Assembly (NCBI GenBank): GCA_024685775.1
Contig: JAIKVL010000033.1
Span: 7,908-71,907, forward strand
Direction: 5' to 3'
DNA length: 64,000 nt
From: Clostridia bacterium
GTDB lineage: Bacteria; Bacillota; Clostridia; Christensenellales; CAG-1252
Shown here: in pieces, positions 12,348 to 27,014 of the stretch
Position numbering within the stretch: the stretch's first letter is position 1
Layout: each line of letters begins with the position of its first letter
Made by a program: the position numbers and the translations under genes
Notes under the pieces: model-generated
Told to the model about the DNA's origin: nothing
What the model saw: only the letters and a program-made list of their open reading frames with translations
The model's database searches: none

Positions 12348-15300
12348 TTACAGCGCGCGGATGCTTTCGACCGGAGATTTCTTCGCCGCGAAGAAGACGG
12401 GAAGGAATGTCGCGAGAACGGAAATGAAGATCGAGACTCCGAAGATCAAAGCGACGTTGATCGGTCCGAAATTCAAAAGCTGCATCGAGACCGCATCGAC
12501 CAGCGACCGATTCAGGAAGAAGCAGACGATAAACGATCCGACCGACGCGAGAATAAAGCAAATAAACGCGATGATGAACGCTTCCGCGTAGAAAATCTTG
12601 AAGACGTCCGATCCTCTTGCGCCGACCGCGCGCAGGATCCCGATATCTTTGCGCTTCGCGGAGATCGAAACCGCAATGAAGTTCAAAAGGAACAGCGCGG
12701 CGATCGCACCGACGACCAATCCGACGATCAGGAAAATTTTCTGCAACATTTTGATCATGGAAAGGAACATTTCGAGTTGCTCGTAGACTCTGCTCTCGAC
12801 GCCGTACTTCACGTTGTCGCCCCCTTTCAGCGCAGAAGTGATCTGCGCTTGCGAATTATCCGTCGGAGAGAAAATCAGATTGTACTTCGCATCGTCCGGG
12901 CGAACGTAATCGGTTTTATACGACATACTCCAATGATAGCCGCCGTCTTGATTCATCGTGGCGTGCGCTTCCATCCAAGACTCGGAAATCGCATAATAAG
13001 CGCCGAGGTTTGCGACCGAAGAATCAAAGTAACCCGCGATTTCAAGCGTTCCCGAGGCGTTATACTTGTCGCGGAACCAAAGCGTTCGTACGAAAGAATC
13101 TACGTCGCACGCAAAAACTTTATCGATCTCATCGACGCTTTTCCCTTTTCCCGCGAGGAACGCGTCGACGGCCGCTTTGTACTCTCTGAATTCATCTTCT
13201 CCGCAACTCCGGTTTTTGAGGGAATCGATAACGTTCCACACGATATCGTTATCAAAGATGGATTCGTTAACGTTCCAATAGTATTCAACGATCAAGCCGT
13301 ATACTGTTTGGAGATAATCCGTCTTGAAATCCGAAGAAACGACGGCTTCGATCGCAGCCCAATCCGCGGCGGTCGGCTCGATCGCGTTTTCCGACATATT
13401 CACATAATATTGAATTTTTTCGTAGGCAGCCGAGAAATTTTCCGTAGAATACCCGTTATTCCGAAGAATGGACGCGGCGTCGTACAAATATTTTCTGTAC
13501 ATAAGCTTTTGAAACCAAGTTTGAACGTATCCGACGTACGGCGCGGGATCGGTCGAATTCCAAAAAGCGTTCGTCAAATCGTCGTTGAAAAGCGCGCGCG
13601 CCTCCGGATCGAAAAGCGCATTATCTCGGCAGCGATTGAAATAGTTTGCGAGCGCGTTTTTCAACATCTCGCGATACGTTGAAAAATTCAGATATATTTT
13701 TCCGTCTTCGAAAGAGGGCTCCGCGATCACGGTTCCGTTCGGCGCATAAAAAACGATTTCGCTTTTATGATTGTTGCAAAAACGATCGGTAAAGATCGTT
13801 TCGCCTGCCCACTGTTCGAGGTCTTGATCGTTTCTTTCATTCGAAAATCGGATGCTTTTGAAATAGCGCCCGTCGAGGTTTCTCATATTACTGTTTTTCG
13901 GCATCCGATCCTTATAGGCGTCGTAAAAAGAAGCGCCGACGAAAATCACGGTATTGAAACTGTTTCTCAAATAATCTTCAAAAGAACGTTTCAAATTTTC
14001 TCGGTTTTCCTCGCTGATGGAATTCGGCGAGGTTTTCAAAACGTCGAACTTGAACGGAATCGATTCGACTGAGACGATGCCTTTGATCGTAAACTTGGAA
14101 TCTTCGCCTCGGAAAACATCCCTGCCGCCCGACAAGCGGATGGTTTTCCCGATCAGATCGGAGACGGAATTCACGTTCGCGCCTTCGGTTTCCGCAAAGA
14201 GTTCGGCGAGATACTCGGGAAGCGCGATCTCGTTTTTCGCCGAAGGATATTCCCCGATCAGGCGATACCCGACGGAAGAAAGATACTCCGCGCCGCAATC
14301 GGAAAAACCGAGAGCCGTCGTAACGGAATAAAACGACCGATGGTCCGAACCGACGGAAACGGGAATATAGCTATCTCCCGAAACGAGATCCAAAGTATAG
14401 CCGGAACGCTCGTAATACGAGTAGTCCGAAAAGTCGAAAACGCCCGCGAATTTGAGCCCGTCTTTGCTCTTCGATCCGACTTCGGACGCGCCGAATAACG
14501 TCGTAACGTAGTCCGTGTCGCGATCCATGACTTCTTCATTCCCGGAAGAATCCATGCGAATTTGTTCACACATCACCTTATAGGATTTGCTCAGCGTGAG
14601 CATAGGATAATTCGCTTCTTTCAGCGCTTTGGAAATCGAATAGTTCGAATCGTACAGCATAAAGGTGGAAGCGACACCGAACATGACGAACGCCGCGACC
14701 GATAAAAGGATCGTAAAGATCAAGCGGATCGGCTTGCTTTTGAGACCGCTCGCGCCCATCTTGATCGCGTGCCCCATCGGCAGGCGCGACTTGATAAACT
14801 TCGTCTCTTTTCCGTTATACGCTTTCGTTTCTACGGCGTCGGTCTGCTTAAAGGATTCTTTCGAGCCGTCGTCATTGATCTTGCAGGCGCGCTTTACGTC
14901 TTTGAGCTCGCGCTCCCCTGCCGCGATGATCGCTTCGCCGCCTTTCTTTTTCAAAACTTCCGCGATCTTTTTAATATCCGCATCCGTGATCGCCGCGCCG
15001 TCCTTGACACGGATCGTGTCGTCCATAACGACGACGTTCTCGTCGGAATTTTCGGGTTCGATATAGGTTTTGCTGACGTCCGAAAGGATCTTTCCGTCTT
15101 TCAGTTCGATGATCCTGTCGCCGTAAAACTCCGCGAACTCCCGATCGTGAGAAACGACGATGACGAGTTTGGTTTCGGACAGCTTCTTCAAAGTGTCCAA
15201 GACCTGCTTTCCCGTGTTGGAATCGAGCGCGCCCGTCGGTTCGTCCGCCATAATGATCTCGGGCTGTTTGATAAGAGCGCGCGCGATCGCGACCCTCTGC

Positions 15301-15737
15301 TTCTGACCGCCGGACAAGGTGTTCGGTTTTCTCTTCCCGTACCCCTTCAAATCCACCTGCTCCAAAAGATCGGCGACCGCCTTTTTATCGTTCGGTTTGT
15401 TTTGAAGTTGCAGAGCGAGCGCGATATTCTGCTCGATCGTAAACTCGTTCAAAATGTTGTACTCTTGGAAGACGAATCCGATAAAGGTATTCCGATAGCT
15501 GTCGAAATCCGCTCCGGAGAATTCCTTACTGCTTCGCCCTTTCACGAGGATCTCGCCGCCGTCCGGCTTATCCAAGCCGCCCGCGACGTTCAAAAGCGTC
15601 GATTTACCCGAACCGCTCTTACCGAGCAAAAAGACCATTCCTTTTTCGGGGAACGTTACGGAAACGTCGTCGAGCGCGCGCACTTCGACGCCGCCCTTTC
15701 CTGCGTAGACTTTGGTCAGGTTTTTAACCTCTAACAT
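12348..15737 (-). CDS. Fused ABC transporter: N-terminal ATPase plus FtsX/MacB-type permease with a very large extracytoplasmic domain
   Basis: This is a 1129-aa ORF. It has Walker A GKSGSGKST, signature LSGGQKQR and Walker B IIMADEPT. A TM lies near aa 335-360, about 640 aa of soluble region follows, and three C-terminal TMs are typical of FtsX (…GILRAVGARGSDVFKIF…). Confidence 0.85.
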   Translation of the reverse strand: MLEVKNLTKVYAGKGGVEVRALDDVSVTFPEKGMVFLLGKSGSGKSTLLNVAGGLDKPDGGEILVKGRSSKEFSGADFDSYRNTFIGFVFQEYNILNEFTIEQNIALALQLQNKPNDKKAVADLLEQVDLKGYGKRKPNTLSGGQKQRVAIARALIKQPEIIMADEPTGALDSNTGKQVLDTLKKLSETKLVIVVSHDREFAEFYGDRIIELKDGKILSDVSKTYIEPENSDENVVVMDDTIRVKDGAAITDADIKKIAEVLKKKGGEAIIAAGERELKDVKRACKINDDGSKESFKQTDAVETKAYNGKETKFIKSRLPMGHAIKMGASGLKSKPIRLIFTILLSVAAFVMFGVASTFMLYDSNYSISKALKEANYPMLTLSKSYKVMCEQIRMDSSGNEEVMDRDTDYVTTLFGASEVGSKSKDGLKFAGVFDFSDYSYYERSGYTLDLVSGDSYIPVSVGSDHRSFYSVTTALGFSDCGAEYLSSVGYRLIGEYPSAKNEIALPEYLAELFAETEGANVNSVSDLIGKTIRLSGGRDVFRGEDSKFTIKGIVSVESIPFKFDVLKTSPNSISEENRENLKRSFEDYLRNSFNTVIFVGASFYDAYKDRMPKNSNMRNLDGRYFKSIRFSNERNDQDLEQWAGETIFTDRFCNNHKSEIVFYAPNGTVIAEPSFEDGKIYLNFSTYREMLKNALANYFNRCRDNALFDPEARALFNDDLTNAFWNSTDPAPYVGYVQTWFQKLMYRKYLYDAASILRNNGYSTENFSAAYEKIQYYVNMSENAIEPTAADWAAIEAVVSSDFKTDYLQTVYGLIVEYYWNVNESIFDNDIVWNVIDSLKNRSCGEDEFREYKAAVDAFLAGKGKSVDEIDKVFACDVDSFVRTLWFRDKYNASGTLEIAGYFDSSVANLGAYYAISESWMEAHATMNQDGGYHWSMSYKTDYVRPDDAKYNLIFSPTDNSQAQITSALKGGDNVKYGVESRVYEQLEMFLSMIKMLQKIFLIVGLVVGAIAALFLLNFIAVSISAKRKDIGILRAVGARGSDVFKIFYAEAFIIAFICFILASVGSFIVCFFLNRSLVDAVSMQLLNFGPINVALIFGVSIFISVLATFLPVFFAAKKSPVESIRAL

Positions 15738-15765
15738 ATTTATTCTCCCTTTTTGTAATACTTTA

Positions 15766-15794
15766 ATTATATATGATTCTATTCCTTATATCAA
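15766..15794 (-). promoter_or_regulatory. Sigma-70-type promoter for the ABC gene
   Basis: On the minus strand it reads TTGATA (15794-15789), a 17 nt spacer, then TATAAT (15771-15766). The site lies 29 nt upstream of ATG 15737. Confidence 0.6.
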
Positions 15795-15804
15795 TAGGAA
15801 AAAT

Positions 15805-15829
15805 AAAAAAAAGGGAAGAACCCTTCCCC
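15805..15829 (-). terminator. Intrinsic terminator closing the six-gene McrB-like/SipW operon
   Basis: On the minus strand it reads GGGAAG-GGTT-CTTCCC followed by T8. It begins 7 nt after the stop codon at 15836-15838. Confidence 0.8.
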
Positions 15830-15835
15830 TTTTCG

Positions 15836-16588
15836 TTACTTTCTGCGTTTTCTCTGCGCTTCTTCCAGGCGCTTTTTGCTCGCGATATACTCCTCGACGG
15901 CTTTTCTTTTGATCTCGTCCTCTCTCTGCTTGATGAGTTCTTCGGGAGTGAGCTGCTCTTTCTTCAATTCCGCGTCGTCCTTCATCTTGCAAGCGCGCAC
16001 GAAATTGATGATTTGGATGACGAGCAAGCAAAAGAGCGGGACGAAGACGATCAATCCGAAGCCGAGCTTACTGCGGAACGCATTGTAGACGAAGGTCATG
16101 ACGACGGACGTCCGAACGTACTTCCCGATGACGTCGGTATACTCGATCGGTTTATCCGCGATCCCGTAATTCGCGTCGCCGCAGGTCGTCAGTTTCCCGT
16201 CCTCGACGCCTTCGCTTATGATCCTATGCGTAACGATCTTGCCCGAGAGCTCGCCTTTCCCGACGAAGGTAACGATATCTCCCTTTTTGAGTTCGTTTTC
16301 GGAACCCACTTTTTTAACGATAATGACGTCGCCGACGTCCAAAGTCGGGCGCATGGATCCCGAAATAACGGTATAGACCCCGTAACCGAAGAGATTCGGA
16401 CGCTTCGCCGTCTTCACCTGAATGAGCGTAAAGATCACGAACCCGAGCAAAAGAAGCAGAAACACCGTTACGACGGTGCTTACGATCTTTTGGGCGACGG
16501 ACGGCTTTTTTCCGTTCGTTTCTTGTTTTTTAACGCTTTCTTTTTCTTTCATAGTCGCGTAAAGAGACGGCGAACCGTCTCTTCTCAA
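15836..16588 (-). CDS. SipW-type (ER/archaeal-type) signal peptidase I, copy 2, with a charged C-terminal tail
   Basis: It has a TM (VVTVFLLLLLGFVIFTLI), catalytic-region motifs ISGSMRPTLDVGDVIIV, VTHRII and CGDANYGIAD, a second TM, and a K/E-rich tail containing EIKRKAVEEYI. The start is ambiguous: TTG 16588 lies 3 nt after the upstream stop, and ATG 16552 is the alternative. Confidence 0.8.
   Translation of the reverse strand: MRRDGSPSLYATMKEKESVKKQETNGKKPSVAQKIVSTVVTVFLLLLLGFVIFTLIQVKTAKRPNLFGYGVYTVISGSMRPTLDVGDVIIVKKVGSENELKKGDIVTFVGKGELSGKIVTHRIISEGVEDGKLTTCGDANYGIADKPIEYTDVIGKYVRTSVVMTFVYNAFRSKLGFGLIVFVPLFCLLVIQIINFVRACKMKDDAELKKEQLTPEELIKQREDEIKRKAVEEYIASKKRLEEAQRKRRK
16563..16582 (-). 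other. Perfect 8-bp hairpin at the junction between the McrC-like gene and sipW copy 2
   Basis: AGAGACGG-(4 nt loop)-CCGTCTCT lies between the stop at 16592 and ATG 16552. No clear U-tract follows. Confidence 0.5.
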
Positions 16589-16591
16589 TGC

Positions 16592-19228
16592 TTATTTCTT
16601 TTTATCTTTCTTTTTGTCTTTCTCTTTTTTATCCCCGATCACGTCGTGAACGTTCTGCGGCGTTATGGAAAGAGGCGTGTAAGAACGCGGGATAAACGTG
16701 CGGGCGCGGCCGCCGTCCGAGGGATTCGGAGTGACTTCCGAGATCTTCGGCTCTTCTCTCTCGATCGAGTTTTCTTCAAACGAACGCGCATCTTCGGAAG
16801 GCGACGTCGGCGCAAACGGTTTCGGCGCCAAAATATCCTTCGCGGACGGCGTGTAGGGGTTGGGCGCGGCGGGCTTCTTCGATTTGGGCGAGGTCGGAGC
16901 GAAGCTGGTGGCGCCTTGCGCCTTGTTCTCCTCTTCGAGTCTCTTCAACTTCTCTTTGAATTCCGCCTTCTCTTGCGCTTTCTTCGCCTTTTCCTCTTCC
17001 TTCTTCGCTCTCGCTTCTTCTTTCTTTCTGAGCTTGAAGGCTTTTCTCTCCTCTTTCGAAGTCGCGACGTTCTCGCGATCTTCCTCGGGGGTCAGCTTCA
17101 TCGCGGACACGTCCTTGTTGATGAGCTTCTCGTCCACGTTCAATTCGTCGATAAAGCTCCAATCGTCCTCCGCGGTCGGGAGCTCTTCTTCCTCTTCTTC
17201 TTGGGGCGCTTCTTCGGGTTCGGGCTCGGGCTCTTCCTCGGGAACGAAGTCGAAGACGACCTCTTCCGCGTTCTGACCGAGCTCCGTATAGCCGATATCG
17301 CCGACTTCGGGCGTAGGCGCGACCGCCTCTTCCTTCTCTTTTTCAAGCTCTTCCGGCGTAAGTTTATCGTTCAGAATCTCGTTGATCTGTTCCTTTCCGT
17401 AGGTCAGGACGTTGACGTCTTCCGCCTCCATCGCGTCGGCGCGCTCTTCTTCGGTCGCGGTCACGCTGTCGAAGTTAATGAGCTGCGCAAGCTCTTCCAT
17501 ATCGATAATCGCCTGCTTTTGCTGGGCTTCCATATCGGCGTAGTGCGTGCTGATGAGCTCCTGCATCGTGTGCTCTTGCTCGCGGCGCATTTCCTCGATC
17601 CTGCGGATCTCTTTTTTACGAAGCAATAACAGCGCTTCGCCTTCGATCGGAGCGATATAGGTCATCGTCTTTTCGCGTTCGAGCTGCTCGGCGAGAAGTT
17701 GCTTTTCGGTCGCCATACGCTCTTCTTCCGAGCGTTGGATCGCAAGCAGTCTTTCCTTTTCCGCGGCGAGGCGCTTCTCCATTTCCGCTTCTTCTTTGCA
17801 GAGGCGCAAACGCATGAGTCTTTCTTCCGCGCGAACGATGCGATCGTGCATCTCTTTCTTTTCGCGTTTGATGCGCTCTTGTTCTTCCTTCTGCGCGAGC
17901 TTCATCGCCTTTTCCGCTTCTTTCTCCGCGCGGATACGCTCTCTTTCTTCGGCTTTGCGGCGTTTTTCTGCGTCCTTCGCGTCCTTCTCCGCCTGCCTGA
18001 GCGCTTCGAGTTTAAGCTCGGCTTCCTCTTTGAGCTGTTGCTTCAACAAGGCTTTTTGCCGCGCGCTGTCTTCCTTGGCGGTGTTGATCTTATACTGGCG
18101 AATGACGCGATCCAAAGCCGCGTTCATCTTGCGAACGTCGTCCATTGGGACTTCGCGCTCGCCCGGAACCGTCGTGTACAAACGGCGGATCTCGTGAAGA
18201 TCCATATGGAGCTGCGGGAAATCGTCCGGGACGAAATCGTCGATATTCTTGGTCAGGTATTCGTTCTCGACGTTCTTTTCTTTTTCGAGATCTTTCTCTT
18301 CCACGAGCCCGCCTTCGGCTTTCGCCGCCATCGACTCGATGATAAGAGTGTTCAAATAAATAAGGTCGCGATACTTTTCGGAAACGGAAGGCGAAAGATC
18401 GCGCGTCTCCGTAACCGTTTCGACTTCGAAACCGATCTTGTTATACGATTCGATGAACTGCCAAAGGACCAGAGCTTTTTTGAAGTTCGGGTCTTTCAAG
18501 ATGACGTTCGTACGGGTGATCGGCGGGCGGACCAGCGCGCAACTGACCATTTCCTTCGCGAACGGGCTCGCAAGGAAGCTCGAAACGATGCTGTTGATCC
18601 TTTCCACGCGTTGAACCAACGTTCGGTTGTCGTCCGCGCCCATTAAGTTTTCCACCGGCATATTCGCGGTGGTGGACATTGTGTAGCTGATCGAATTATC
18701 ATTTTTCAGTCCGAAATCGGAAGTAACGTTGACGACGATCTGGTCGCTGTTCGCGTTCGCCTGCTTGATCAAATTAAAGCGGCGGGTAATGAAATCCTTC
18801 GTCTTCAAAAGGAGGGTATAGATAAAACGGTTCTCGTAAATCTCGTACGACTCTTCTTTCGACGTGTTCAGGATTTTACTCGGAATGACCATTCCGTCTT
18901 TGGTAACGGAAGAAATGTAGTTCGTGTGCTGCGCAAGGTGCTTGACGGACTCGACGGAAATACTCCTCGCGAGAGAGATATCGACGATATCTTCTTCGAC
19001 GACGATGAACTTACGCGGGTTACGAACGATCGTGTCGAGCGCGACGATACAATCTTCGAGGGTGTCGATCCAACTCTCGTCGAAGATCTGCTTTTGGAAG
19101 CGCTGCGACACTTGAAAACTATTCTTACCCTGCGCGATATAATCCGAATAATCGGAATAAAAGTCCTCCTGTTTGAGGAGCGTACTCAGGTAATATAGAT
19201 ATTCTTCGTACCTTTTCTTGTCTGCCAT
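16592..19228 (-). CDS. McrC/DUF2357-like N-domain protein with a ~200-aa coiled coil and a Pro/Lys-rich tail; no nuclease motif seen
   Basis: This is an 878-aa ORF starting 20 nt after the McrB-like gene. The N-domain (aa 1-305) has SYEIYENRFIYTLLL and ITRTNVILKDPNFKKALVLWQFI, which resemble the ENRF and YxxLxxW segments of McrC-N/DUF2357 proteins. That judgement is by eye only. Residues 385-580 form an E/K/R heptad-like coiled coil. The rest is acidic, then P/K-rich, and ends in KKEKDKKKDKKK. I found no D...(D/E)xK nuclease core. Confidence 0.55.
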   Translation of the reverse strand: MADKKRYEEYLYYLSTLLKQEDFYSDYSDYIAQGKNSFQVSQRFQKQIFDESWIDTLEDCIVALDTIVRNPRKFIVVEEDIVDISLARSISVESVKHLAQHTNYISSVTKDGMVIPSKILNTSKEESYEIYENRFIYTLLLKTKDFITRRFNLIKQANANSDQIVVNVTSDFGLKNDNSISYTMSTTANMPVENLMGADDNRTLVQRVERINSIVSSFLASPFAKEMVSCALVRPPITRTNVILKDPNFKKALVLWQFIESYNKIGFEVETVTETRDLSPSVSEKYRDLIYLNTLIIESMAAKAEGGLVEEKDLEKEKNVENEYLTKNIDDFVPDDFPQLHMDLHEIRRLYTTVPGEREVPMDDVRKMNAALDRVIRQYKINTAKEDSARQKALLKQQLKEEAELKLEALRQAEKDAKDAEKRRKAEERERIRAEKEAEKAMKLAQKEEQERIKREKKEMHDRIVRAEERLMRLRLCKEEAEMEKRLAAEKERLLAIQRSEEERMATEKQLLAEQLEREKTMTYIAPIEGEALLLLRKKEIRRIEEMRREQEHTMQELISTHYADMEAQQKQAIIDMEELAQLINFDSVTATEEERADAMEAEDVNVLTYGKEQINEILNDKLTPEELEKEKEEAVAPTPEVGDIGYTELGQNAEEVVFDFVPEEEPEPEPEEAPQEEEEEELPTAEDDWSFIDELNVDEKLINKDVSAMKLTPEEDRENVATSKEERKAFKLRKKEEARAKKEEEKAKKAQEKAEFKEKLKRLEEENKAQGATSFAPTSPKSKKPAAPNPYTPSAKDILAPKPFAPTSPSEDARSFEENSIEREEPKISEVTPNPSDGGRARTFIPRSYTPLSITPQNVHDVIGDKKEKDKKKDKKK

Positions 19229-19248
19229 TCCCTATCTTTCCCTTACCG

Positions 19249-20829
19249 TTAGAAGAGTTTCTTCAACCTTTCGAGGTATTCCTTACATTCGGTCATGTTT
19301 TCCTCTCCGAAGTGATCGGAAAGGTATTGGATATAGTCGTCAACCTCGTCGCGGATGTAGGCAAGGTTCAAGGATTCGAATTTACGAAGGATCTTGTTAC
19401 AGAGGACGTAGTCCAAGCCGTCGATCTCCGTTCCGCCGCAAGCGACGTACACGGGGACGAATTCTCTTAATTGCTTAACGATACGGTTACCGAACGCCAA
19501 GCGGAAATGCTCGATAACGTAATCATCCATCTCTTCGAATTTTCTCAGGTTCTCTTCGCTGACCTTATGCTCTTCCTGCGCTTTTGCAAACAGGGATTCG
19601 AGATACTTATAAGACAGCGGCATCATATTCGTCAAAGGCGCGTCGAAAGGCTTCGCCTTGCTGTTGATGTTGATCGGCATACCACGGTCGTAAACCTTAT
19701 CGGAGATCGCGAACGTCGAGTCATCGTTGTTCGCCGTTCCGACGAACCACATGTTTTCCGGCAAACGGAAACGACCTTTTTCAACGTGCTTCGGGTCGGA
19801 AGGCCAACCGCTCGGAACGAGGTCGACGATCCATTGATCACGCGACGGCATTTCGAGAATGGACAACATTTCCGCGAAGTAGTACTCGACACGCGCGATG
19901 TTCATTTCGTCGAGGACGGTCAGATACATATCTTCGTTATAGGTCGCGTCGTACATCGCTTTCAGCGTTTCCGTTTCGTTGAACCTCTTGGTAAATTCGT
20001 TGAAGTATCCGAAGATTTCGGTTCTATCACGCCAAGACGGCTGAACGGAAGCGATCGTCGTCGGGTTGTCGATAAAGTGACCGATACATTCGGGAAGTGA
20101 GGTTTTACCGGTACCGGATATACCTTGCAGGATGATGAGCCTCGTCGTTGCAAGACTTGCGAAGAACAATCGAATGATCTTGGGTTCGTAATAAAGCTTA
20201 CGCCACGGTCTGTCGGGGTTATTCGCCGCGTAATTTCGGAAGGTGTCGCAAAGCTCCGAAAGCGTAAAATCCTTTCGGAATTCGGTATGACGCTGCGAGC
20301 CTTCTTCCGCGTATTGGTTATCGACTTCCGTCAGCTTGTAGAAACGGCTCTCGCCTTCCTTTTTCGCGCTGGACGTGTCTTCGCCTTCGTTTCCTTCCAA
20401 AACGTCGTAGCCTTGATAGCCGATCTTCAAACCGAGGATGCGGTCTTTTTCTTTCGTCAATTTAACGATCTGACCTTTTAAGTTTCCGATCTCGTCCACG
20501 AGGTCTTGATTCAAAACCCTCGAACCGAAGAGTCTTTTGAAGAAACGGACGAGGAAGTAAGCGCCGACGACGACGATCGCAAGAAGAGCGAGAACGACGA
20601 GGATAATGATCACCCAAGCGCCGATCCATTGCCCGGTACTCATCTGCTTCATCGCTTGGAATTTTTCTACGACCGCAATATAGCTGTCTATCGCGAACAA
20701 TTGACGGAACGCGCCGAAGAAACCGCCGTACCAATTAAAACCGGAAATACCGTGCGGTTGCGTATAGAAAAAGCCAAGAAATCCAAAGAAGAATACTTGC
20801 AAAAATTCTTTTATAAAATCAGTAAACAT
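19249..20829 (-). CDS. Membrane-anchored McrB-type AAA+ (AAA_5) GTPase
   Basis: This is a 526-aa ORF with a TM helix WIGAWVIIILVVLALLAIVVVGAYFLVRFF (aa 67-95) and a short coiled coil. Walker A is ILQGISGTGKTS. SVQPSWRDRTEIFGYFNEF compares with McrB vqFHpsYsYeDFveG. Walker B and following, LTVLDEMNIARVEYYFAEMLSILE, compares with lIiDEiNRanlskifGEl..llE. RLPENMWFVGTANNDDSTFAISDKVYDRG compares with f.iP.Nl.iiGTmNtaDrs...lD.AlrRRF and includes the NxxD GTP motif. Confidence 0.75.
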   Translation of the reverse strand: MFTDFIKEFLQVFFFGFLGFFYTQPHGISGFNWYGGFFGAFRQLFAIDSYIAVVEKFQAMKQMSTGQWIGAWVIIILVVLALLAIVVVGAYFLVRFFKRLFGSRVLNQDLVDEIGNLKGQIVKLTKEKDRILGLKIGYQGYDVLEGNEGEDTSSAKKEGESRFYKLTEVDNQYAEEGSQRHTEFRKDFTLSELCDTFRNYAANNPDRPWRKLYYEPKIIRLFFASLATTRLIILQGISGTGKTSLPECIGHFIDNPTTIASVQPSWRDRTEIFGYFNEFTKRFNETETLKAMYDATYNEDMYLTVLDEMNIARVEYYFAEMLSILEMPSRDQWIVDLVPSGWPSDPKHVEKGRFRLPENMWFVGTANNDDSTFAISDKVYDRGMPININSKAKPFDAPLTNMMPLSYKYLESLFAKAQEEHKVSEENLRKFEEMDDYVIEHFRLAFGNRIVKQLREFVPVYVACGGTEIDGLDYVLCNKILRKFESLNLAYIRDEVDDYIQYLSDHFGEENMTECKEYLERLKKLF

Positions 20830-20906
20830 AGGCTTTACCCTTCCTTTCCCATTTTCGCTCGGGCGCGACGAACGCGCCTTCGCTCTTTCGTTTCACGCGC
20901 CGAAAC

Positions 20907-21806
20907 TTACGCTTTTGTCTCTTCTCCTTTTTGATCGGAAGCGCCGCCATCTCCCGCAGCGGGGCTGAGCCCCTGACTCTTCAAATACTCTTCGATCGCC
21001 TTGCGCTTGATCGCTTCTTCGTCGATCGATGCGAGAGCCGCCTGCTTCGCGCTTTCCGCCGCCGCCGCTTTCGCCTTCTTCATCTTGTTTTCGACGACGA
21101 TCTGCGCGACCAAATAAATATTATAGATCAGCAACAATCCGAGAGGAATGATGATGACGTAGATGAAATGGTATCCGTCGCGGATCCAAGTCAACGCCGA
21201 ACCGAGTCCGTTGATATGGAACGCATAAACGGCGAGGATATCGCCCGCGAGCTTATCCGCTTCGTCCGGGAGCGGGTTGGCGTCGCCCTGCGTCCTGTAC
21301 TTCTTGACGCCGTCGACGTCTTTGACTTCGATAATTCTGTGCGTTACGAGAATGACTTGACGGCTGTTGTCTTCAAGCATCTTGAACGTCACGATGTCGC
21401 CGACTTTCAGATCGTTCCCGCCTTTTTTCGGGCTCGTCGCGAAAACGAGCGCGCCTTCGGGGAAACTGTCCTTTTTATCCCCGTCCATTGATCCCGTCAA
21501 AACGGGAAGTAACTTCAACCCGACGGGAGAGACCTTGTCGCCCGATTGCGGGTTCAGCATAACGACCAAACAAATGACGATCGCGAGGACGACGAAAGCG
21601 ATCTGCACGGCGAGAACAACCGCGTTCGCGATCCTTTTGCCTTTGCTCATCGGTTTCTTTTCCCTTTCGTCGATTTTTTTCGCCGCAGATTCGACTGCGG
21701 GAGCCGCCTCGACCGTTTCCGCATTTTCTTCGACCGCTTCGGTGACGGGCGTCGCCGCGGTTTCTTCCGTTTCGGTTTCGTTACTCAATTTCTTGTCTTT
21801 TTCCAT
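20907..21806 (-). CDS. SipW-type (ER/archaeal-type) signal peptidase I, copy 1, with an acidic N-extension and a charged C-terminal tail
   Basis: ATG 21806 has GAGGAG 11 nt upstream; the ORF track starts at 21941 inside the previous gene. It has a TM (AVVLAVQIAFVVLAIVICLVVML), the motifs VLTGSM, VGDIVTF, VTHRII and QGDANPLPDE, a second TM, and a tail containing AIKRKAIEEYL. Confidence 0.8.
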   Translation of the reverse strand: MEKDKKLSNETETEETAATPVTEAVEENAETVEAAPAVESAAKKIDEREKKPMSKGKRIANAVVLAVQIAFVVLAIVICLVVMLNPQSGDKVSPVGLKLLPVLTGSMDGDKKDSFPEGALVFATSPKKGGNDLKVGDIVTFKMLEDNSRQVILVTHRIIEVKDVDGVKKYRTQGDANPLPDEADKLAGDILAVYAFHINGLGSALTWIRDGYHFIYVIIIPLGLLLIYNIYLVAQIVVENKMKKAKAAAAESAKQAALASIDEEAIKRKAIEEYLKSQGLSPAAGDGGASDQKGEETKA

Positions 21807-21823
21807 TTCAGTTTGTTCTCCTC

Positions 21824-22777
21824 TTAGCTTTGGGTGACGAATTCGACCGCAAGTTTGACTTGCCCGCCGAGAATACCTCTTTCGCTGTCTACCGTGCTGG
21901 ACGCGTCGCCGATACACTGCGGATCCTCGCCTTCCAGCCAAATAATGATCGTGTACTTAATGATCTCGCCGGGGTTTAAGGGGAAGAGTTCGCTGTTCAG
22001 GACGTAGCCGCCGCCTTGGAAAGGCTTCGCAAGCCAGACGCCGTCTTCCGCGATCGTTCCTTCCTCAAACGTGAATCCGTTGAAAACGTCGATCGTCTGC
22101 GGTTTGTAATTCTTCCCGGGGACGACTTCTTCCGGAATCACGTTTCCTCCTTCGTCGAGAAGGTTTTTGCCTCTTTGATCGGTCTGCGGCGCGGAGTAGA
22201 CCGAGATCGTTCCGTAGTTCTCGTCCGTCAGATCGGAATCCTTGATGACGAGGACGCGGATCGCTTTATCCATATTCCGCATCGCGCGTTCGATCGAGAT
22301 CATTTCCCGATAGCCGACCGCGCCGGTTCCGCTGTTTTTCAAATAGAACGACGTCGCGATAAAGAAATCCTGCGTGCCTTCGCCCTTGTAGGGACCGTTC
22401 GACTCGTAAATATCTTTAATCTTTCCGTCGATATAGTTGCACAAAGTACTGTTGTCCATATTCTTCGGCGCGGCGACGTCCAAAACGCTGGTCGGGTTCG
22501 TAAACTCGAAGTCCTTGGAAAGAGAGAGCCACGAAGTACCCGTCTGCGAAACGGTAACGCGGAAGTTGTTGTTATCCACGAAACGCATAATCGCGTACGT
22601 TATGCCCGCGAGAAGGGTGACGATAAGCAAGAAGAGCAGAAGAATGATAATGACCGCTCTTCTGCGCGCTTGCCGACGGACGCGTTTGTTTTTGATAACG
22701 TACTCGTTCTCCGCCGCCAATTGCTCCTGAATCAGTTGATCGGGAGTTTTTTCAACGTCACTCTTTGTTTTCGCCAT
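21824..22777 (-). CDS. TasA/camelysin-like (Peptidase_M73-like) secreted beta-rich protein with a signal-anchor
   Basis: This is a 317-aa ORF. A 40-aa charged N-extension precedes the TM/signal segment AVIIILLLFLLIVTLLAGITYAIMRF, which compares with the SipW-type signal ..GGTyAyF. FYLKNSGTGAVGYREMISIE compares with TasA F.F.N.GSL. The C-terminal WLEGEDPQC...GGQVKLAVEFVTQ compares with TasA yQGNSIKLQFSFEATQ. The assignment is by motif only. Confidence 0.5.
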   Translation of the reverse strand: MAKTKSDVEKTPDQLIQEQLAAENEYVIKNKRVRRQARRRAVIIILLLFLLIVTLLAGITYAIMRFVDNNNFRVTVSQTGTSWLSLSKDFEFTNPTSVLDVAAPKNMDNSTLCNYIDGKIKDIYESNGPYKGEGTQDFFIATSFYLKNSGTGAVGYREMISIERAMRNMDKAIRVLVIKDSDLTDENYGTISVYSAPQTDQRGKNLLDEGGNVIPEEVVPGKNYKPQTIDVFNGFTFEEGTIAEDGVWLAKPFQGGGYVLNSELFPLNPGEIIKYTIIIWLEGEDPQCIGDASSTVDSERGILGGQVKLAVEFVTQS

Positions 22778-25571
22778 TGTTCTTTACCTTAGGCACCGGC
22801 TTTATGTTCGTCAGCGCCAAATTGATAATTCTCATCGGGCGCGCGACCGCATCGCCCTGTATGACCTTTACGCCGTGATCGAGAAGGATCCTCGCCTCCT
22901 CTTTATGCTCGCAGTTGATGGACGTCGTTACGATATTCTGAACGTCCGCATACCCCGTTATCATATCGAGGTGAGAAAGCCGCTTGGAGCTGTCGCCGCT
23001 GTAATAGCGGGCGTCCAAACGGAGATAATCGAATTCGTACTCGGTCAAGACGCGCATACTCGCGCTTTCCGCGTTGTCGATCATAATGAGCGCGCCTTGC
23101 GTTTTCAAAGTGTTGATCGCGCTGATGCCGACGTAGCCGACCGCTTCGAGCATCGCGCAGTCGAACGCGAGAATCAGGTTCTTATGCTCGGTCTGCATTT
23201 TGTCGACGAGCTTCGTCAAGGTTTCCTGTTTCAGCAAAAGACGGCAACTGATCTTGACCGCGAAACGAATATCCGGGTTCTCGTTGCAATCCTTTACGAC
23301 GTTGTCGAGCGCGATATAATTCAATTCCTCGATACGGGAGCTGCCCTCCGCGATCGCGAAATACTCCTGCGGGATCATCTTGCCGAGGAATTTATCGTTC
23401 AGGACCTGATACACGTTCAGATACTGGACGACGCCTTCCTCATTGATCGCCGCGTCGTAAAAGAAGACGATCGGAGTCGCGAGCGCCACGCCCGCATTCA
23501 GGGTCTTGGCTTTGCTTCTTTGCAGTTCGAGAAGGTCGCGCGCGGTGAGACCGTCGTCCGGCTTATACCCCTTCGGGACGCCCCAAGCGTCCGTCGCGCC
23601 CATCTGCTCGCGAAGATGCTCGGTCAATTCGCCGTAAACGTCGGCGTACTCTTCCCCTTCGCGTTTTACGAACGGTTTATCCTCTTCGCCTTTGAAGACG
23701 GCGTTTTTGATATACGGGTATTTCTCCGCGAACGGAACGTACGCATAGCGCTTGTTGCGTTCGAGCCCGTTTTCCTTCATCAACTCCGTGATGAGTTTGA
23801 CGGCTGCGTCGCGCTCCTTTTCGTTCTCGATCTTCAAAAGGAGCTTCGTGCCTTCGTAACCGATCTGATCCGAAGCGTCCTTATGCTTATACTTCCGCGT
23901 CGGATATTTTTTCGGATCGAGCGCAAGATAGAGCCTGACGATCTCCGCGACGATCGTAATACGCGCGATCAGCTTTTTGCCCGACTTGAAATTGTCGTTC
24001 TTGACCGTCATTTCGGATTTGACCGTCTTGTAGGACAAAAGCTCGTTTTTGATCTTGCTGTATAAGATCTTGATCGTGTTCGGGCACTGGTGGATCTTGT
24101 TTTCGAGCGTCAGAGGAAGGACGCTTAACGGCTGCGCTTCTTCTTGGACGATTTGGATCTCCTGCTCCGGCTCTTCGGAAAGACCCGCGGCTTTTCTTTC
24201 TTCCGCGCGCTTTTCCTTGATGAGGTTTTGCTCGTCCTTCTCTTCGAGAGAAAGATATTTGCCTTTCGTGTCCAGAACCGCGTCGCTTCTTCTCGGGAAG
24301 TTCGGGAGATAATCCACCGTTTCCGGATTTTCAAGGCGGCTTATATTGAATTTGCCCATCATCAGGGCGAGAAGCTCGATCACGATCGCGAATTCGTCGT
24401 CGTTACGGACGCGAAGCAACATTCTCGCGTCGTCGAAATCGACTTCGGAACGATCCGCCTGCTTATAGCGATCCACGTCGAATTCCACGGGATCGAGCGC
24501 GAAATAGATGCGGGTGAAACCGGCGACGGACAAACGCGCCAAAACCTGCTTCCCGCGACGGAAAACCTCGGTCGCCGTCTGCATTTCCGCCTTGACGCCA
24601 TCATACGCCAAGATCTCGTTTTTGAGCTTGTTGTAATACCTGCGCTCGCGCGTGTCGGCGAGGGCGAGTTTATTTTCGAGGCTGCGCTTCAAAACGGCTT
24701 TGCCGTCTTCGTTCAAAAGCTCGCCTCGCTCGTTATACTTCGGCTCCGCTTTCTTCGCCTCTTCCTTTTCCTGCTCTTGCTTTTCGAGGTACTCCGTTCC
24801 ATCTTCGGCTAAGGTCTCGGCGTTATCCGCGATCTGATCCAAGAGCTCTTGCCTTTCTTCGAAGTTGCCGCCGTAGACGAAGTCGTCCATCGCGCCTTCC
24901 GCCATGAAGGCTTGCATATAGTCGTCGTCCATAACGAAGGCCTCGCCTTCACCGTTTCCTTCCGCGGGAGTCGAAGACGTTTCCTGCGACGCCTCGTTCG
25001 ACGATTCCGCAGACTCGGACTCAGTCGGTTCTTCCTGCGCGCTCATCGCGGGCGCGACGGCAAAAACGACGTCCGAAGGCTCGGCGGACATAATCCCGTC
25101 GTCCATCGCCTGCACTTCGGCGAGAAGCGCGGCTTCTTCTTCGGGATCGAGCGGCGCATCCTGCGACGTCGCGGATTCTTCCGCGGCTTCGGATCCGTCA
25201 ACCGAACTTTCCGCTTCTTCGGGAGCGGGCTCTTCCGTCTCGGTTTGCGGCTCGGTGGGACTTTCCGGCGCCGTCTCTTCGGCGGAGGCTTCGGATCCGA
25301 GATCTTCCGATGCGGGATCGGGGTTCTCGGTCGGTTCCGTTTCTTCTTCGGGGACGAAGGGCGTTACGGCAGTCGCGTCTTCACTGACGGGACGAAAAGA
25401 ATTCGCCCGCTTGGGCGCTTCCGTTTCTTCGGTTAACGCTTTTTGATTCTCGGCGTCGAATTCTTCTCCGTACAAAACGGAGGAATCCTCTTTACGCTTC
25501 TTCTTATCAGTCCGCCATTTGAATGCCAAAGCAACCTCCCGACCAGTGTCAACAACCCAAAAGAATCGCAA
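22758..25571 (-). CDS. Large cytoplasmic protein: acidic IDR, two ~105-aa internal repeats, and a C-terminal degenerate EAL-like domain
   Basis: This is a 937-aa ORF. EAL-like landmarks at aa 698-915 are IPQEYFAIAEGSSRIEELNYIAL (matching P.eFi..AE..g.I), AVKIS (for VNlS), LAFDCAM (for lEiTE), LIMIDNAESAS (for alDDFGtG), YLRLD (for lKiD), VTTSINCE (for vAEGVE) and VIQGDAVARPM (for QGy.f.rP). The start is uncertain. It is either TTG 25571 or TTG 25529, which lies 5 nt after GGGAGG. Confidence 0.7.
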   Translation of the reverse strand: MRFFWVVDTGREVALAFKWRTDKKKRKEDSSVLYGEEFDAENQKALTEETEAPKRANSFRPVSEDATAVTPFVPEEETEPTENPDPASEDLGSEASAEETAPESPTEPQTETEEPAPEEAESSVDGSEAAEESATSQDAPLDPEEEAALLAEVQAMDDGIMSAEPSDVVFAVAPAMSAQEEPTESESAESSNEASQETSSTPAEGNGEGEAFVMDDDYMQAFMAEGAMDDFVYGGNFEERQELLDQIADNAETLAEDGTEYLEKQEQEKEEAKKAEPKYNERGELLNEDGKAVLKRSLENKLALADTRERRYYNKLKNEILAYDGVKAEMQTATEVFRRGKQVLARLSVAGFTRIYFALDPVEFDVDRYKQADRSEVDFDDARMLLRVRNDDEFAIVIELLALMMGKFNISRLENPETVDYLPNFPRRSDAVLDTKGKYLSLEEKDEQNLIKEKRAEERKAAGLSEEPEQEIQIVQEEAQPLSVLPLTLENKIHQCPNTIKILYSKIKNELLSYKTVKSEMTVKNDNFKSGKKLIARITIVAEIVRLYLALDPKKYPTRKYKHKDASDQIGYEGTKLLLKIENEKERDAAVKLITELMKENGLERNKRYAYVPFAEKYPYIKNAVFKGEEDKPFVKREGEEYADVYGELTEHLREQMGATDAWGVPKGYKPDDGLTARDLLELQRSKAKTLNAGVALATPIVFFYDAAINEEGVVQYLNVYQVLNDKFLGKMIPQEYFAIAEGSSRIEELNYIALDNVVKDCNENPDIRFAVKISCRLLLKQETLTKLVDKMQTEHKNLILAFDCAMLEAVGYVGISAINTLKTQGALIMIDNAESASMRVLTEYEFDYLRLDARYYSGDSSKRLSHLDMITGYADVQNIVTTSINCEHKEEARILLDHGVKVIQGDAVARPMRIINLALTNIKPVPKVKNNGENKE

Positions 25572-25718
25572 AACACCGATTACTTATCGGAGATGCGCTC
25601 TTTCGTTTATTTTTATTCGCTTCGAGATCGGGAAATTCTACTCACTTTTCATTGAAAACCGCGCAAATATTCGCATTTTTCAAAATTTGAAGCAAGGCAT
25701 ACCCTCTCCCGTTTAATC

Positions 25719-25727
25719 ATTATACCA
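25719..25727 (-). promoter_or_regulatory. Extended -10 promoter element (TGGTATAAT) upstream of the six-gene operon
   Basis: The reverse complement of 25719-25727 reads TGGTATAAT. It would give a leader of roughly 150-190 nt. The -35 region is weak. Confidence 0.45.
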
Positions 25728-25751
25728 TACATTCCTTTTCGATACGGAATT

Positions 25752-25767
25752 ATTAAGAATTCTTAAT
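25752..25767. promoter_or_regulatory. Perfect 16-bp palindrome ATTAAGAATTCTTAAT, candidate operator in the divergent control region
   Basis: The sequence is self-complementary over 16/16 positions. It sits immediately upstream of the -35 position of the minus-strand extended -10 promoter. Confidence 0.4.
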
Positions 25768-25879
25768 GTTGCTAATTCCTGTAAAAATCCAGCTTTTTCG
25801 GGACATTTCGACTTATGTTAGAGCAAATTTACAAGAATGTATAAATGCGGTTACAAAATGACGGAAAAACTCACCCCTA

Positions 25880-25908
25880 TTGAATTTTCTTCTTTTATTT
25901 GGTATAAT
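25880..25908 (+). promoter_or_regulatory. Sigma-70-type promoter for the 25933 membrane-protein gene
   Basis: It reads TTGAAT (25880-25885), a 17 nt spacer, then TATAAT (25903-25908). The TGG preceding the -10 makes it an extended -10. Confidence 0.6.
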
Positions 25909-25932
25909 ATTTTTCACAAAGGAGGTACGTTT

Positions 25933-26424
25933 ATGGACAATCCCATCGGAGAAAAAGAAGCGCTCGCCGCCGAAGCGGAAACGAAAAACGCGGAAGTTGT
26001 CGCAGATCCGATCGAAGAGCCGACCCCGCAAAATCTTCTTTCCGAAAACGCGCTTTGCGCCGTTAAAAAGGGACCGAAAAAAGCAAGTTACGTCTTTTTC
26101 GTGCTTGCCGTTTTGACCTTTATTCCGTTCATTTTTCTGACGATGCCGTTCTTGGGCGCCTTCTTTGACAGCTCGCCCGAGGACCTCGGCGAAGCGCTCG
26201 GAAAAGTCTTCGGGCTGCTCTTCGTGATCATCTTTATGGCCATCACGGGGATCCCGAATTTCATCTTTTCTTTGCTCTCCACGATCTTTTTCGGGACGGC
26301 GATCGGAAAGACGGATCCCAAGCGCAAGGTGAAAACCATCGTCTTTTTCGCGATCTCGCTCGCGCTTTTGATCGCCGTCGTTACGATCGCGCTGATCAGT
26401 TTCATCGTCATAAAAAGGAACTGA
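25933..26424 (+). CDS. Four-TM membrane protein, unknown function
   Basis: ATG 25933 is preceded by AAGGAGGT. The translation is MDNPIGEKEALAAEAETKNAE... followed by four hydrophobic helices. The ORF track starts earlier, at 25837. Confidence 0.65.
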   Translation: MDNPIGEKEALAAEAETKNAEVVADPIEEPTPQNLLSENALCAVKKGPKKASYVFFVLAVLTFIPFIFLTMPFLGAFFDSSPEDLGEALGKVFGLLFVIIFMAITGIPNFIFSLLSTIFFGTAIGKTDPKRKVKTIVFFAISLALLIAVVTIALISFIVIKRN

Positions 26425-26451
26425 ACCGGTCGATCCTTCCAAACACAGCAT

Positions 26452-26489
26452 AAAAAAATCGCTCGCAATATGCGAGCGATTTTTCTTTG
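26452..26489. terminator. Bidirectional intrinsic terminator (end of the ribosomal alpha operon and of the 25933 gene)
   Basis: It has a 10-bp perfect stem ATCGCTCGCA-ATA-TGCGAGCGAT, flanked by A7 on the left and T-rich sequence on the right. Confidence 0.85.
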
Positions 26490-26504
26490 TTAAACGTTTT
26501 CCGA

Positions 26505-27014
26505 TCAAAGCATCTCGATGATCGCCATTTCCGCGGCGTCGCCTTTTCTTTGACCGAGCCTAAGGATGCGGGTATATCCGCCGCCTTGGGTCTGTTTGTC
26601 GTTGCGCTCTTTATACTTCGGAGCGTACTCGTTGAAGATCTTCTCGATCAAAGGATGATTGATGTCCTTCGTCCTCGCAGCGTACTTGCTCTTGCTCTCT
26701 TTCTCGCCCTTCTTCTCTTGAATATCGTAAAGCTCAGCCATCAAACGACGCCTTGCCGCGAGCTTTTTCGGACCGTCGTTCGTAAATTTGACGGACACTT
26801 TCTCGTCTTTGAGGTTGACTTTTTCTTTGACAACTTCAACGGTGTCTTGATAGGTGTTGATAGCGAGAGTGAGAAGTTTTTCAGCCATACGACTTACCTC
26901 TTTGGCGCGGTCGAAGGTGATCTCGATCTTTCCGTACCACAAAAGGTCGGAAACTTCGTTCTTCAACATCGCCATACGTTGGTCTGTCGGTCTTCCTAAT
27001 TTTCTTTGATTCAT
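26505..27014 (-). CDS. rplQ: 50S ribosomal protein L17 (with an internal insertion)
   Basis: MNQRKLGRPTDQRMAMLKN...GGYTRILRLGQRKGDAAEMAIIE. It is the last gene of the alpha operon. Confidence 0.95.
   Translation of the reverse strand: MNQRKLGRPTDQRMAMLKNEVSDLLWYGKIEITFDRAKEVSRMAEKLLTLAINTYQDTVEVVKEKVNLKDEKVSVKFTNDGPKKLAARRRLMAELYDIQEKKGEKESKSKYAARTKDINHPLIEKIFNEYAPKYKERNDKQTQGGGYTRILRLGQRKGDAAEMAIIEML

Follow-up and report, generated by a model that had tools for sequence, protein, structure and literature searches.

The six-gene operon described here lies on the minus strand of a 64,000-nucleotide stretch of DNA from a Clostridia bacterium (Christensenellales, CAG-1252; contig JAIKVL010000033.1), which as a whole is called the window below. 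Its open reading frames (ORFs), A to F, are tightly packed between 15.8 and 25.6 kb of the window, with an overlap of 20 nucleotides (nt) between A and B and gaps of 14-77 nt between the others. They encode a degenerate EAL-domain protein (A), a membrane-anchored protein with a predicted TasA-like ectodomain (B), two SipW-type signal peptidases (C and F), a membrane-anchored McrB-family AAA+ GTPase (D) and a McrC-like partner in which no nuclease domain was detected (E). By its sequence features, the operon is a member of CoCoPALM, an association named by Bell, Makarova, Wolf and Koonin (eLife 2024, PMC11090510), and nothing contradicting this was found. We infer, with moderate confidence, that its products form a GTP-driven, membrane-tethered machine controlling the processing or assembly of a TasA-like fibre. 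This agrees with the proposal published for CoCoPALM (PMC11090510). An earlier reading of the same DNA, made from its letters without database searches (the sequence-only reading), had likewise suggested a GTP-driven machine exapted from McrBC for a TasA-like polymer, which fits the evidence given here. It had also held that no described system combines the two modules, and in this it was mistaken, since CoCoPALM is such a system: already named, uncharacterised, known to specialists in McrBC diversity and biologically unusual.

The published account of CoCoPALM takes up one paragraph, with the analysis deferred to a later paper. It places the GTPase in the branch with an NxD motif, usually followed by D or E, and reports FtsB homology of the N-domain (PMC11090510). 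In the window operon we found the NxD motif, operonic genes of the signal peptidase family, a McrC homologue with DUF2357, and a helix or coiled coil on both partners. FtsB homology is the only one of the published characters that failed to reproduce here.

The gene set is conserved across species. The N-terminal domain of E had 2423 relatives in a large protein collection. When one genome per species was scanned by pattern, 242 genomes with an E relative were obtained; 80 loci were fetched, 66 of them with a near-full-length D homologue, and all ORFs of the fetched loci were searched with the six window proteins. The loci came mostly from metagenome-assembled genomes of Christensenellales and other Clostridia from rumen and gut, with a few from Erysipelotrichaceae or Bacilli, and the nearest one (94% identity) was labelled Christensenella sp. 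UBA4247. Across the 66 loci D, E and F were contiguous, C alone standing between D and E in one clade, and F followed E in nearly all loci extending beyond E. The EAL gene and C were present wherever the upstream flank suffices. B was detected in all such loci except those of Erysipelotrichaceae, where a B-family profile recovered a homologue of 351-387 amino acids (aa). The order EAL-B-C-D-E-F was seen in 14 loci (and in 7 more with a long form of A, scored by its N-part), EAL-C-B-D-E-F in 11, EAL-B-D-C-E-F in 7, and EAL-D-E-F-B-C in 2. Since the order is shuffled while the membership is constant, the genes can be regarded as a functional unit, with selection acting on the linkage itself. Co-occurrence of A to F, which the sequence-only reading had put forward as a check on its proposal, was thus borne out by synteny in dozens of species. 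Two loci, obtained by exact protein look-up, showed the same layout amid housekeeping genes. Flanking genes were housekeeping genes (rpoA, rplQ, asd, pdp, an ABC transporter and genes for hydrogenase) and none was a defence gene; nuclease-family neighbours were seen only at the Erysipelotrichaceae locus, which lies between two PDDEXK_2 (Rpn-like) genes.

Gene D (19249-20829, on the minus strand like all genes and features of the operon given below) had its best matches among solved structures with McrB (PDB 6hz4, 6ut6 and 7vsr), E. coli McrB being the best solved relative (E 1.8e-6). The NCBIfam McrB model was matched with E 2.9e-6, far under its equivalog cut-off, and Pfam AAA_5 gave a sub-threshold score of 18.9 bits against 22. 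D also matched the PADLOC candidate PDC-M26A (E 2.6e-37). Its NTPase motifs are Walker A GISGTGKT (20101-20124), Walker B VLDEMN (19900-19917) and the sensor motif NNDDS (19717-19731). Among the window D and 65 orthologues, GISGTGKTS and NNDDS were invariant, and four sequences departed from LDEMN in Walker B. If D is aligned to E. coli McrB without gaps, NNDD can also be taken for NxxD; the pattern across the family decides for NxD. When the GTPase domain was searched against 1.84 billion cluster representatives, 8167 matches were obtained, and N-x-D-[D/E]-S with a variable x was present in 124 of the best 150 representatives, which were all those in which the motif was located. From this pattern, D is assigned to the NxD branch of McrB-like GTPases. 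Assignment to the MoxR-type ATPases was ruled out by the McrB best matches together with the NxD signature, so that the sequence-only reading of D as McrB-type with a transmembrane (TM) helix was upheld.

The membrane anchor lies where E. coli McrB carries its DNA-binding N-domain. In D the first ~210 aa are made up of a segment rich in Gly and Phe, then a TM helix and a coiled coil, and a linker, and this region gave no domain match and no nucleic-acid-binding domain. The TM helix (aa 69-87, 20569-20625) is followed by basic residues, a short coiled coil (20425-20517; VLNQDLVDEI..LK...EKDRILGLK) and a GESRFYKLTEVD motif, and the TM helix and coiled coil were found in all orthologues. Because of the basic residues after the helix, the NTPase domain is predicted to be cytoplasmic by the positive-inside rule. 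The closest GTPase relatives have 1-3 N-terminal TM helices, and more distant ones have TM-less charged N-termini of ~450 aa with CoCoNuT-like coiled coils. The segment before the TM helix (aa 1-68, 20626-20829) shows a conserved hydrophobic Gly/Phe-rich pattern, F..FL..F..G.LG.F....GGIFGG..QMFN...Y. It may be membrane-embedded or extracellular; in relatives 1-3 TM helices are predicted there.

The predicted partner of the GTPase is the soluble 878-aa product of gene E (16592-19228). Its residues 1-386 matched Pfam DUF2357, the N-domain of McrC, with 32.7 bits against a cut-off of 23.3, while full-length E gave no Pfam match. The DUF2357 core spans aa 58-163 (18740-19057), and the model was matched by 17 of 25 E-family members scanned. 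No nuclease or McrBC Pfam domain was detected in these 25 members (E and 24 full-length homologues), in agreement with the sequence-only reading of E as a McrC/DUF2357-like protein without a nuclease. Further along is a long helix (aa ~385-520, 17669-18076) in which E, K and R make up 50-62% of residues, and which may be a single ER/K helix instead of a true coiled coil. The tail is of low complexity, acidic, Lys-rich and Pro-rich, and no conserved motif was seen C-terminal to DUF2357. Searching PDB sequences with the E-family profile returned charged-helix noise only. The most conserved stretch of the family is aa 65-135. Within it aa 70-125 (18854-19021), which include much of the least variable sequence of E (IVRNPRKFIV.EEDIVDISLARSIS.ESVKHLAQHT...PSKILNTSKEES), had the lowest confidence of the AlphaFold2 (AF2) monomer model (pLDDT, or predicted local distance difference test, of 41-59). 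Strong conservation together with the lowest pLDDT would be consistent with folding that takes place only upon insertion into a McrB-like ring. On the plus strand, an ATG ORF of 618 aa (15773-17629) runs antisense to E and F; its product is an R/F/L-rich low-complexity sequence mirroring the charged region of E, and it is almost certainly no gene.

Both peptidases passed the NCBIfam model TIGR02228 for archaeal/SipW-type signal peptidase I (cut-off 51.85 bits), C (20907-21806) with 67 bits and F (15836-16552) with 79 bits, and the SipW type named in the sequence-only reading was thereby confirmed; the start of C, however, is corrected here to the ATG at 21806. SipW was the best named match of both (E 9e-21 for C and 2e-26 for F), below the strict SipW equivalog cut-off. 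Of the 19 sequences aligned for each paralogue, 18 had the serine of the SM motif. The histidine of the THR motif was kept in all 19 C-type sequences and in 18 of the 19 F-type ones (the exception being locus L061), and the C-type sequences conserved the GD motif, the F-type ones only in part. Predicted topology is the same for the two: TM1 with its N-terminus inside, the catalytic domain outside, TM2, and a C-terminal cytoplasmic tail. Judging from these residues and the topology, C and F are catalytically intact, with their active sites facing outward. The tails after TM2 share a motif, eEEIKRKAIEEYL, which reads EEAIKRKAIEEYL in C (20982-21020) and EDEIKRKAVEEYI in F (15884-15922) and was conserved in most of the 19 diverse loci aligned per paralogue. 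The cytoplasmic GTPase, McrC-like and EAL proteins may dock at this motif.

The 317-aa product of gene B (21824-22777) has a basic cytoplasmic N-region, a single TM helix and a TasA-like beta-sandwich predicted to lie outside. The helix is a strong signal-anchor (aa 41-59, 22601-22657) preceded by 8 K/R residues, and the N-region is long and conserved (E.EYVIKNKRVRRQ.RRR). Directly after the helix, a TYA motif forms a putative signal-peptidase site. The AF2 model, built with 27 homologues, had a pLDDT of 81, a predicted TM-score (pTM) of 0.72 and a beta-rich ectodomain, and in a Foldseek search of PDB its top match was the TasA fibre (8aur_A, E 1.6e-4, prob 1.00), with an archaeal bundling pilin (7ueg_A) in seventh rank (prob 0.93). 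The sequence-only reading, a TasA/camelysin-like protein with a signal-anchor, therefore stands for the anchor helix and the fold match, and it found no counterpart in Peptidase_M73, as considered further below.

Evidence for a wider set of secreted proteins came from the related loci. In 38 of them, 1-3 additional genes were found in gaps among the six; they belong to a single family (199-548 aa) and lie, for example, at 5626-7176 in L001, 6699-7295 in L003, 3391-4353, 6771-7535 and 7620-8402 in L019, and 7528-8394 in L021 (coordinates within each locus). The products have short cleavable signal peptides of the SipW/TasA-camelysin style, ending ...LSTATFA and followed by WFSANN, and share the C-terminal motif W[FY][DE]G...F.F; the TYA motif of B matches their cleavage site in position. 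No curated model captured the family. A profile of these extra subunits matched the window B (hmmsearch E 3.3e-5), and alignment of the two family profiles with hhalign gave a probability of 95.5% (E 1.5e-8). By these profile comparisons, B is a remote homologue of the extra subunits, a divergent member with a long cytoplasmic N-region. Since the extra subunits are homologous to B, the operon family can be said to encode a set of related secreted subunits.

Gene A (22758-25571), at the head of the operon, encodes a soluble, predicted cytoplasmic protein of 937 aa, in which an acidic, disordered N-part is followed by two repeats and, at the C-terminus, by a degenerate EAL domain. A start at the TTG at 25529, five bases past a Shine-Dalgarno sequence GGGAGG (25535-25540), is more likely and gives 923 aa. 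Pfam EAL was matched at aa 710-912 (22836-23444) with 70 bits against a cut-off of 31.3. A search of PDB with the single EAL domain of the window (phmmer) gave no match; the family profile was required, and with it 40 matches were obtained at E <= 0.01, one of which is not an EAL protein and the others of which are 39 distinct EAL-domain sequences, including those of FimX and LapD, with Bd1971 as the best (E 1.2e-11). In the window protein the canonical residues have given way to others (E of EAL to N, N to K, ExxE to A..C, DDFG to DN, K to R, and E of GVE to S), and none of the catalytic or metal-binding positions is conserved among 17 aligned A orthologues. At the same time the family keeps motifs of its own, e.g. 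QVLND..LGK..P..YFA.AE.S.RIE.LN, and can therefore be considered a conserved pseudoenzyme and no decaying gene. The degenerate EAL protein with two repeats in the sequence-only reading was thus recovered as described, while the control by cyclic di-GMP (c-di-GMP) that it had suggested became doubtful, because the EAL residues are lost and no riboswitch was found in an Rfam scan of 15000-27000 at a lenient threshold. The family has also lost the Arg of EALxR, which aligns with Val, and this would argue against c-di-GMP binding by A.

The two repeats of A (aa 292-437, 24261-24698, and aa 482-630, 23682-24128) are copies of a ~145-aa domain and are 31% identical (BLASTP E 2e-26). Their sole database relative is the PADLOC single-gene defence candidate PDC-S18, which matched the N-region of A in two stretches with E 3e-6, best at aa 482-609 in repeat 2. 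The domain had no Pfam match, its best PDB match was a YdhG-like protein (E 0.46, not significant), and just 2 homologues were found in the large protein collection. It occurs as a single copy upstream of EAL in L001, L019, L026 and L031, and downstream of EAL in L067. The repeat-bearing N-part is an expansion in the window's own clade.

How these parts might work together can be put as follows. D would form a McrB-like hexameric ring under the membrane, and the conserved segment of E (aa ~65-135) would plug this ring and stimulate GTP hydrolysis as McrC does. Insertion of McrC into the McrB ring and its stimulation of GTP hydrolysis are established for E. coli and Thermococcus McrBC (PMC6624300). 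The complex of D ring and E would make contact with the N-region of B and the tails of the two peptidases, natural contact points because no other parts of the secretion module face the cytoplasm. GTP hydrolysis would then gate or drive the cleavage of TasA-like subunits and their polymerisation by donor strands into a surface fibre. B could be the subunit itself or a membrane-proximal anchor or nucleator, and A could act as a regulatory or scaffold subunit, with a loose parallel in FimX.

Several points weigh against such a fibre machine. Extracellular polymerisation of TasA-type fibres needs no source of energy, so that a motor may regulate assembly instead of powering it, and this is the main weakness of the proposal. 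The contacts of the SipW tails, the N-region of B and A with the D/E complex are purely inferred, and CoCoPALM is without a published experiment. The relationship of E to McrC comes from one Pfam profile, DUF2357: a Foldseek search of PDB with the model of its N-domain gave nothing significant and no McrC, and hhalign of the E family against the single E. coli McrC sequence gave nothing. On the fibre side, the TM-scores of the B model against TasA are low (0.25 and 0.33) and B has no Pfam match, Peptidase_M73 included, nor does it reach the TIGR04088 cut-off. The extra subunits stayed sub-threshold as well, with E 0.022 for Peptidase_M73 and 14.3 bits against 19 for TIGR04088, and no classical cleavable subunit was found in the operon of the window's clade or anywhere within the 64-kb window. 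Finally, the FtsB homology reported for CoCoPALM was not recovered for the N-terminus of D, which had no match to Pfam DivIC/FtsB and, when its TM helix and coiled coil were aligned with E. coli FtsB by hhalign, gave a probability of 0.8%. Within that alignment there is a local resemblance over 13 residues between NQDLVDEIGNLKG of D and NDQLFAEIDDLNG of FtsB.

McrBC is the textbook GTP-driven restriction motor. In the operon family studied here, this motor has lost its DNA-binding domain and nuclease, has gained a membrane anchor, and is locked together with fibre subunits and peptidases across a large clade of Bacillota from gut and rumen (Christensenellales and relatives). If the proposed fibre machine is real, a defence motor was re-used for building a surface structure. 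TasA-like fibres, thought to be energy-free, could then be placed under nucleotide control. A bolder version can be offered only tentatively: CoCoPALM may be an unrecognised class of fibre-assembly machine in which GTP hydrolysis by a membrane-tethered hexameric ring of D, plugged by E, is mechanically coupled outward through B's N-region and the tails of both peptidases, yielding cleaved TasA-like subunits and their donor-strand polymers, with the EAL pseudoenzyme regulating it. In that version there would be a clean case of a restriction motor become a secretion motor, and pilus assembly would be powered in a third way, besides the ATPases of type IV pili and the routes that need no energy (chaperone-usher, sortase and TasA).

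Some of the same features could be read as those of a membrane-associated anti-phage or abortive-infection system, in which the GTPase/McrC pair would sense an invader, e.g. DNA or RNA entering at the membrane, and act through the envelope module, e.g. by remodelling or shedding a surface receptor layer. We regard this as unlikely. The ancestry of the pair lies in type IV restriction, and the similarities of D to PDC-M26A and of the A repeats to PDC-S18 support this part of the sequence-only reading, in which defence was the alternative; the gene context speaks against it, the neighbours being housekeeping genes with no defence-island or phage signature. The sister clade CoCoNuT is predicted to be defensive (PMC11090510), and CoCoNuT-like architectures are included among the closest GTPase relatives of D. 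However, no defence effector was detected in any of the six proteins, be it a nuclease, a HEPN domain or another kind, A, B, D and E had no match in PHROGs, and D carries a TM helix where a nucleic-acid-binding domain would sit. Moreover, the set is kept across an order-level clade along with secreted beta-sandwich subunits.

A device for envelope or cell-division morphogenesis was also considered, in which a McrB-like ring with an FtsB-like segment would organise septal or envelope proteins and the peptidases would process envelope proteins; this we hold to be improbable. The precedent is PcdA (PMC10602043), and the housekeeping gene context, the FtsB homology reported for the N-domain (PMC11090510) and the local likeness to FtsB over 13 residues point the same way. 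Yet the FtsB match is not significant, as given above, and the coiled coil of D is predicted to be cytoplasmic, which is the opposite side from that of FtsB. No division genes were linked at the two loci from exact protein look-up, and the invariable partners of the pair are secreted proteins of the TasA fold. A mere coincidence, that is, a decayed ordinary McrBC pair beside an unrelated sipW/tasA-like operon, has only the mixed ancestry of the parts in its favour and is very improbable, since coincidental adjacency is excluded by synteny (linkage kept in dozens of species, with D between B and C in one clade), the membrane anchor is on D itself, and the invariant NTPase motifs show that D is not decaying.

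The six packed genes and the signals bounding them were found where the sequence-only reading had placed them. An extended -10-like element, TGGTATAAT (25719-25727, minus strand), is a candidate promoter of the operon, and a terminator-like hairpin GGGAAG/CTTCCC with a T-run lies at 15805-15834 on the same strand; both are consensus matches only, and a simple sigma-70 scan did not list a full -35/-10 pair at 25719-25727. The 188-nt leader folds only mildly better than shuffled sequences (z = -2.2).

Upstream, the neighbour of the operon is the ribosomal cluster rpsK-rpsD-rpoA-rplQ. Between rplQ and the operon, a divergent gene on the plus strand (25837-26424) encodes a predicted membrane protein of 195 aa, conserved in close relatives only, and at its end a strong 14-bp hairpin, AAAAATCGCTCGC...GCGAGCGATTTTT (26454-26484), could terminate in both directions. 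Just downstream of the operon (12348-15737, minus strand) is a gene for a 1129-aa protein, predicted from its sequence to be a fusion of an ABC (ATP-binding cassette) ATPase and a permease of FtsX type that has a very large extracytoplasmic insert. This gene has its own promoter-like site, TTGATA-17-TATAAT (15794-15766). The rpoA/rplQ and ABC-transporter neighbours are kept only within a clade of ~90% identity, and because of this restricted synteny the 1129-aa gene is probably outside the system. Further downstream, a 280-aa ORF (11395-12237, minus strand) resembles a lipoprotein at its N-terminus (LLGLAAC) and contains a long stretch of low complexity, acidic and rich in Pro, and a weak homologue of it was found in L054 at the equivalent relative position.

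Among known systems, E. coli McrBC shares with the operon an AAA+ GTPase core with Walker A, Walker B and sensor Asn, a DUF2357 partner, and adjacent, tightly packed genes. It differs in having a DNA-binding N-domain where D has a TM anchor, an NxxD motif where D has NxD, and a PD-(D/E)xK nuclease on McrC that E lacks, while the operon, unlike McrBC, is tied to secretion genes and lies outside restriction or defence islands. CoCoNuT systems (PMC11090510) belong to the same NxD branch, carry long helical or coiled-coil regions on their McrB and McrC homologues, and have often lost the McrC nuclease. In contrast to the operon, they are soluble and always associated with HEPN or other nucleases and with helicases, whereas the operon has a membrane-anchored GTPase, peptidases and fibre subunits, and no nuclease was detected in it.

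From the side of secretion, the tapA-sipW-tasA operon of Bacillus subtilis and the archaeal bundling pili similarly have a dedicated SipW-type peptidase beside beta-sandwich subunits, and the signal peptides of the extra subunits in related loci end as in TasA (TFA followed by WF). Unlike the B. subtilis operon, the one described here has two peptidases with a tail motif, a long cytoplasmic N-region on B, and subunits below the thresholds of M73 and TIGR04088. The GTPase/McrC pair and the EAL pseudoenzyme are obligatory partners here, and none of them is found in the Bacillus system. By analogy only, the operon may be compared with FimX and PilB of type IV pili, where FimX, itself a protein with a degenerate EAL domain, acts on the assembly ATPase of the pilus; the proposed machine shares with it the logic of joining such a protein to a hexameric NTPase and to a fibre. 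Neither the NTPase nor the fibre of that system is homologous to its counterpart in the operon, and FimX retains residues for c-di-GMP binding, including the Arg of EVLxR, that the EAL domain of A has lost. PcdA of Staphylococcus aureus is a McrB-family AAA+ protein with a non-defence role, in cell division (PMC10602043). It differs from D in that it is soluble, keeps EVE domains, has no McrC partner, acts on FtsZ and DivIVA, and is accompanied by no peptidase or fibre genes.

The closest known system is CoCoPALM itself, which likewise has an NxD GTPase with an N-terminal TM helix and coiled coil, a DUF2357 partner with a long helix, and signal peptidases, and which occurs in Bacillota. A literature search found no follow-up on CoCoPALM and no relevant link between Christensenella and TasA. 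In PMC11090510, the main text and two supplementary files make no mention of an EAL pseudoenzyme, TasA-fold subunits, a duplicated peptidase or a peptidase tail motif, and the two supplementary files mention neither CoCoPALM nor its parts. Compared with the published description, our analysis adds the EAL pseudoenzyme, the TasA fold match, the finding that the extra subunits carry signal peptides of SipW type, the duplication of the peptidase and its conserved tail motif, and the predicted topology.

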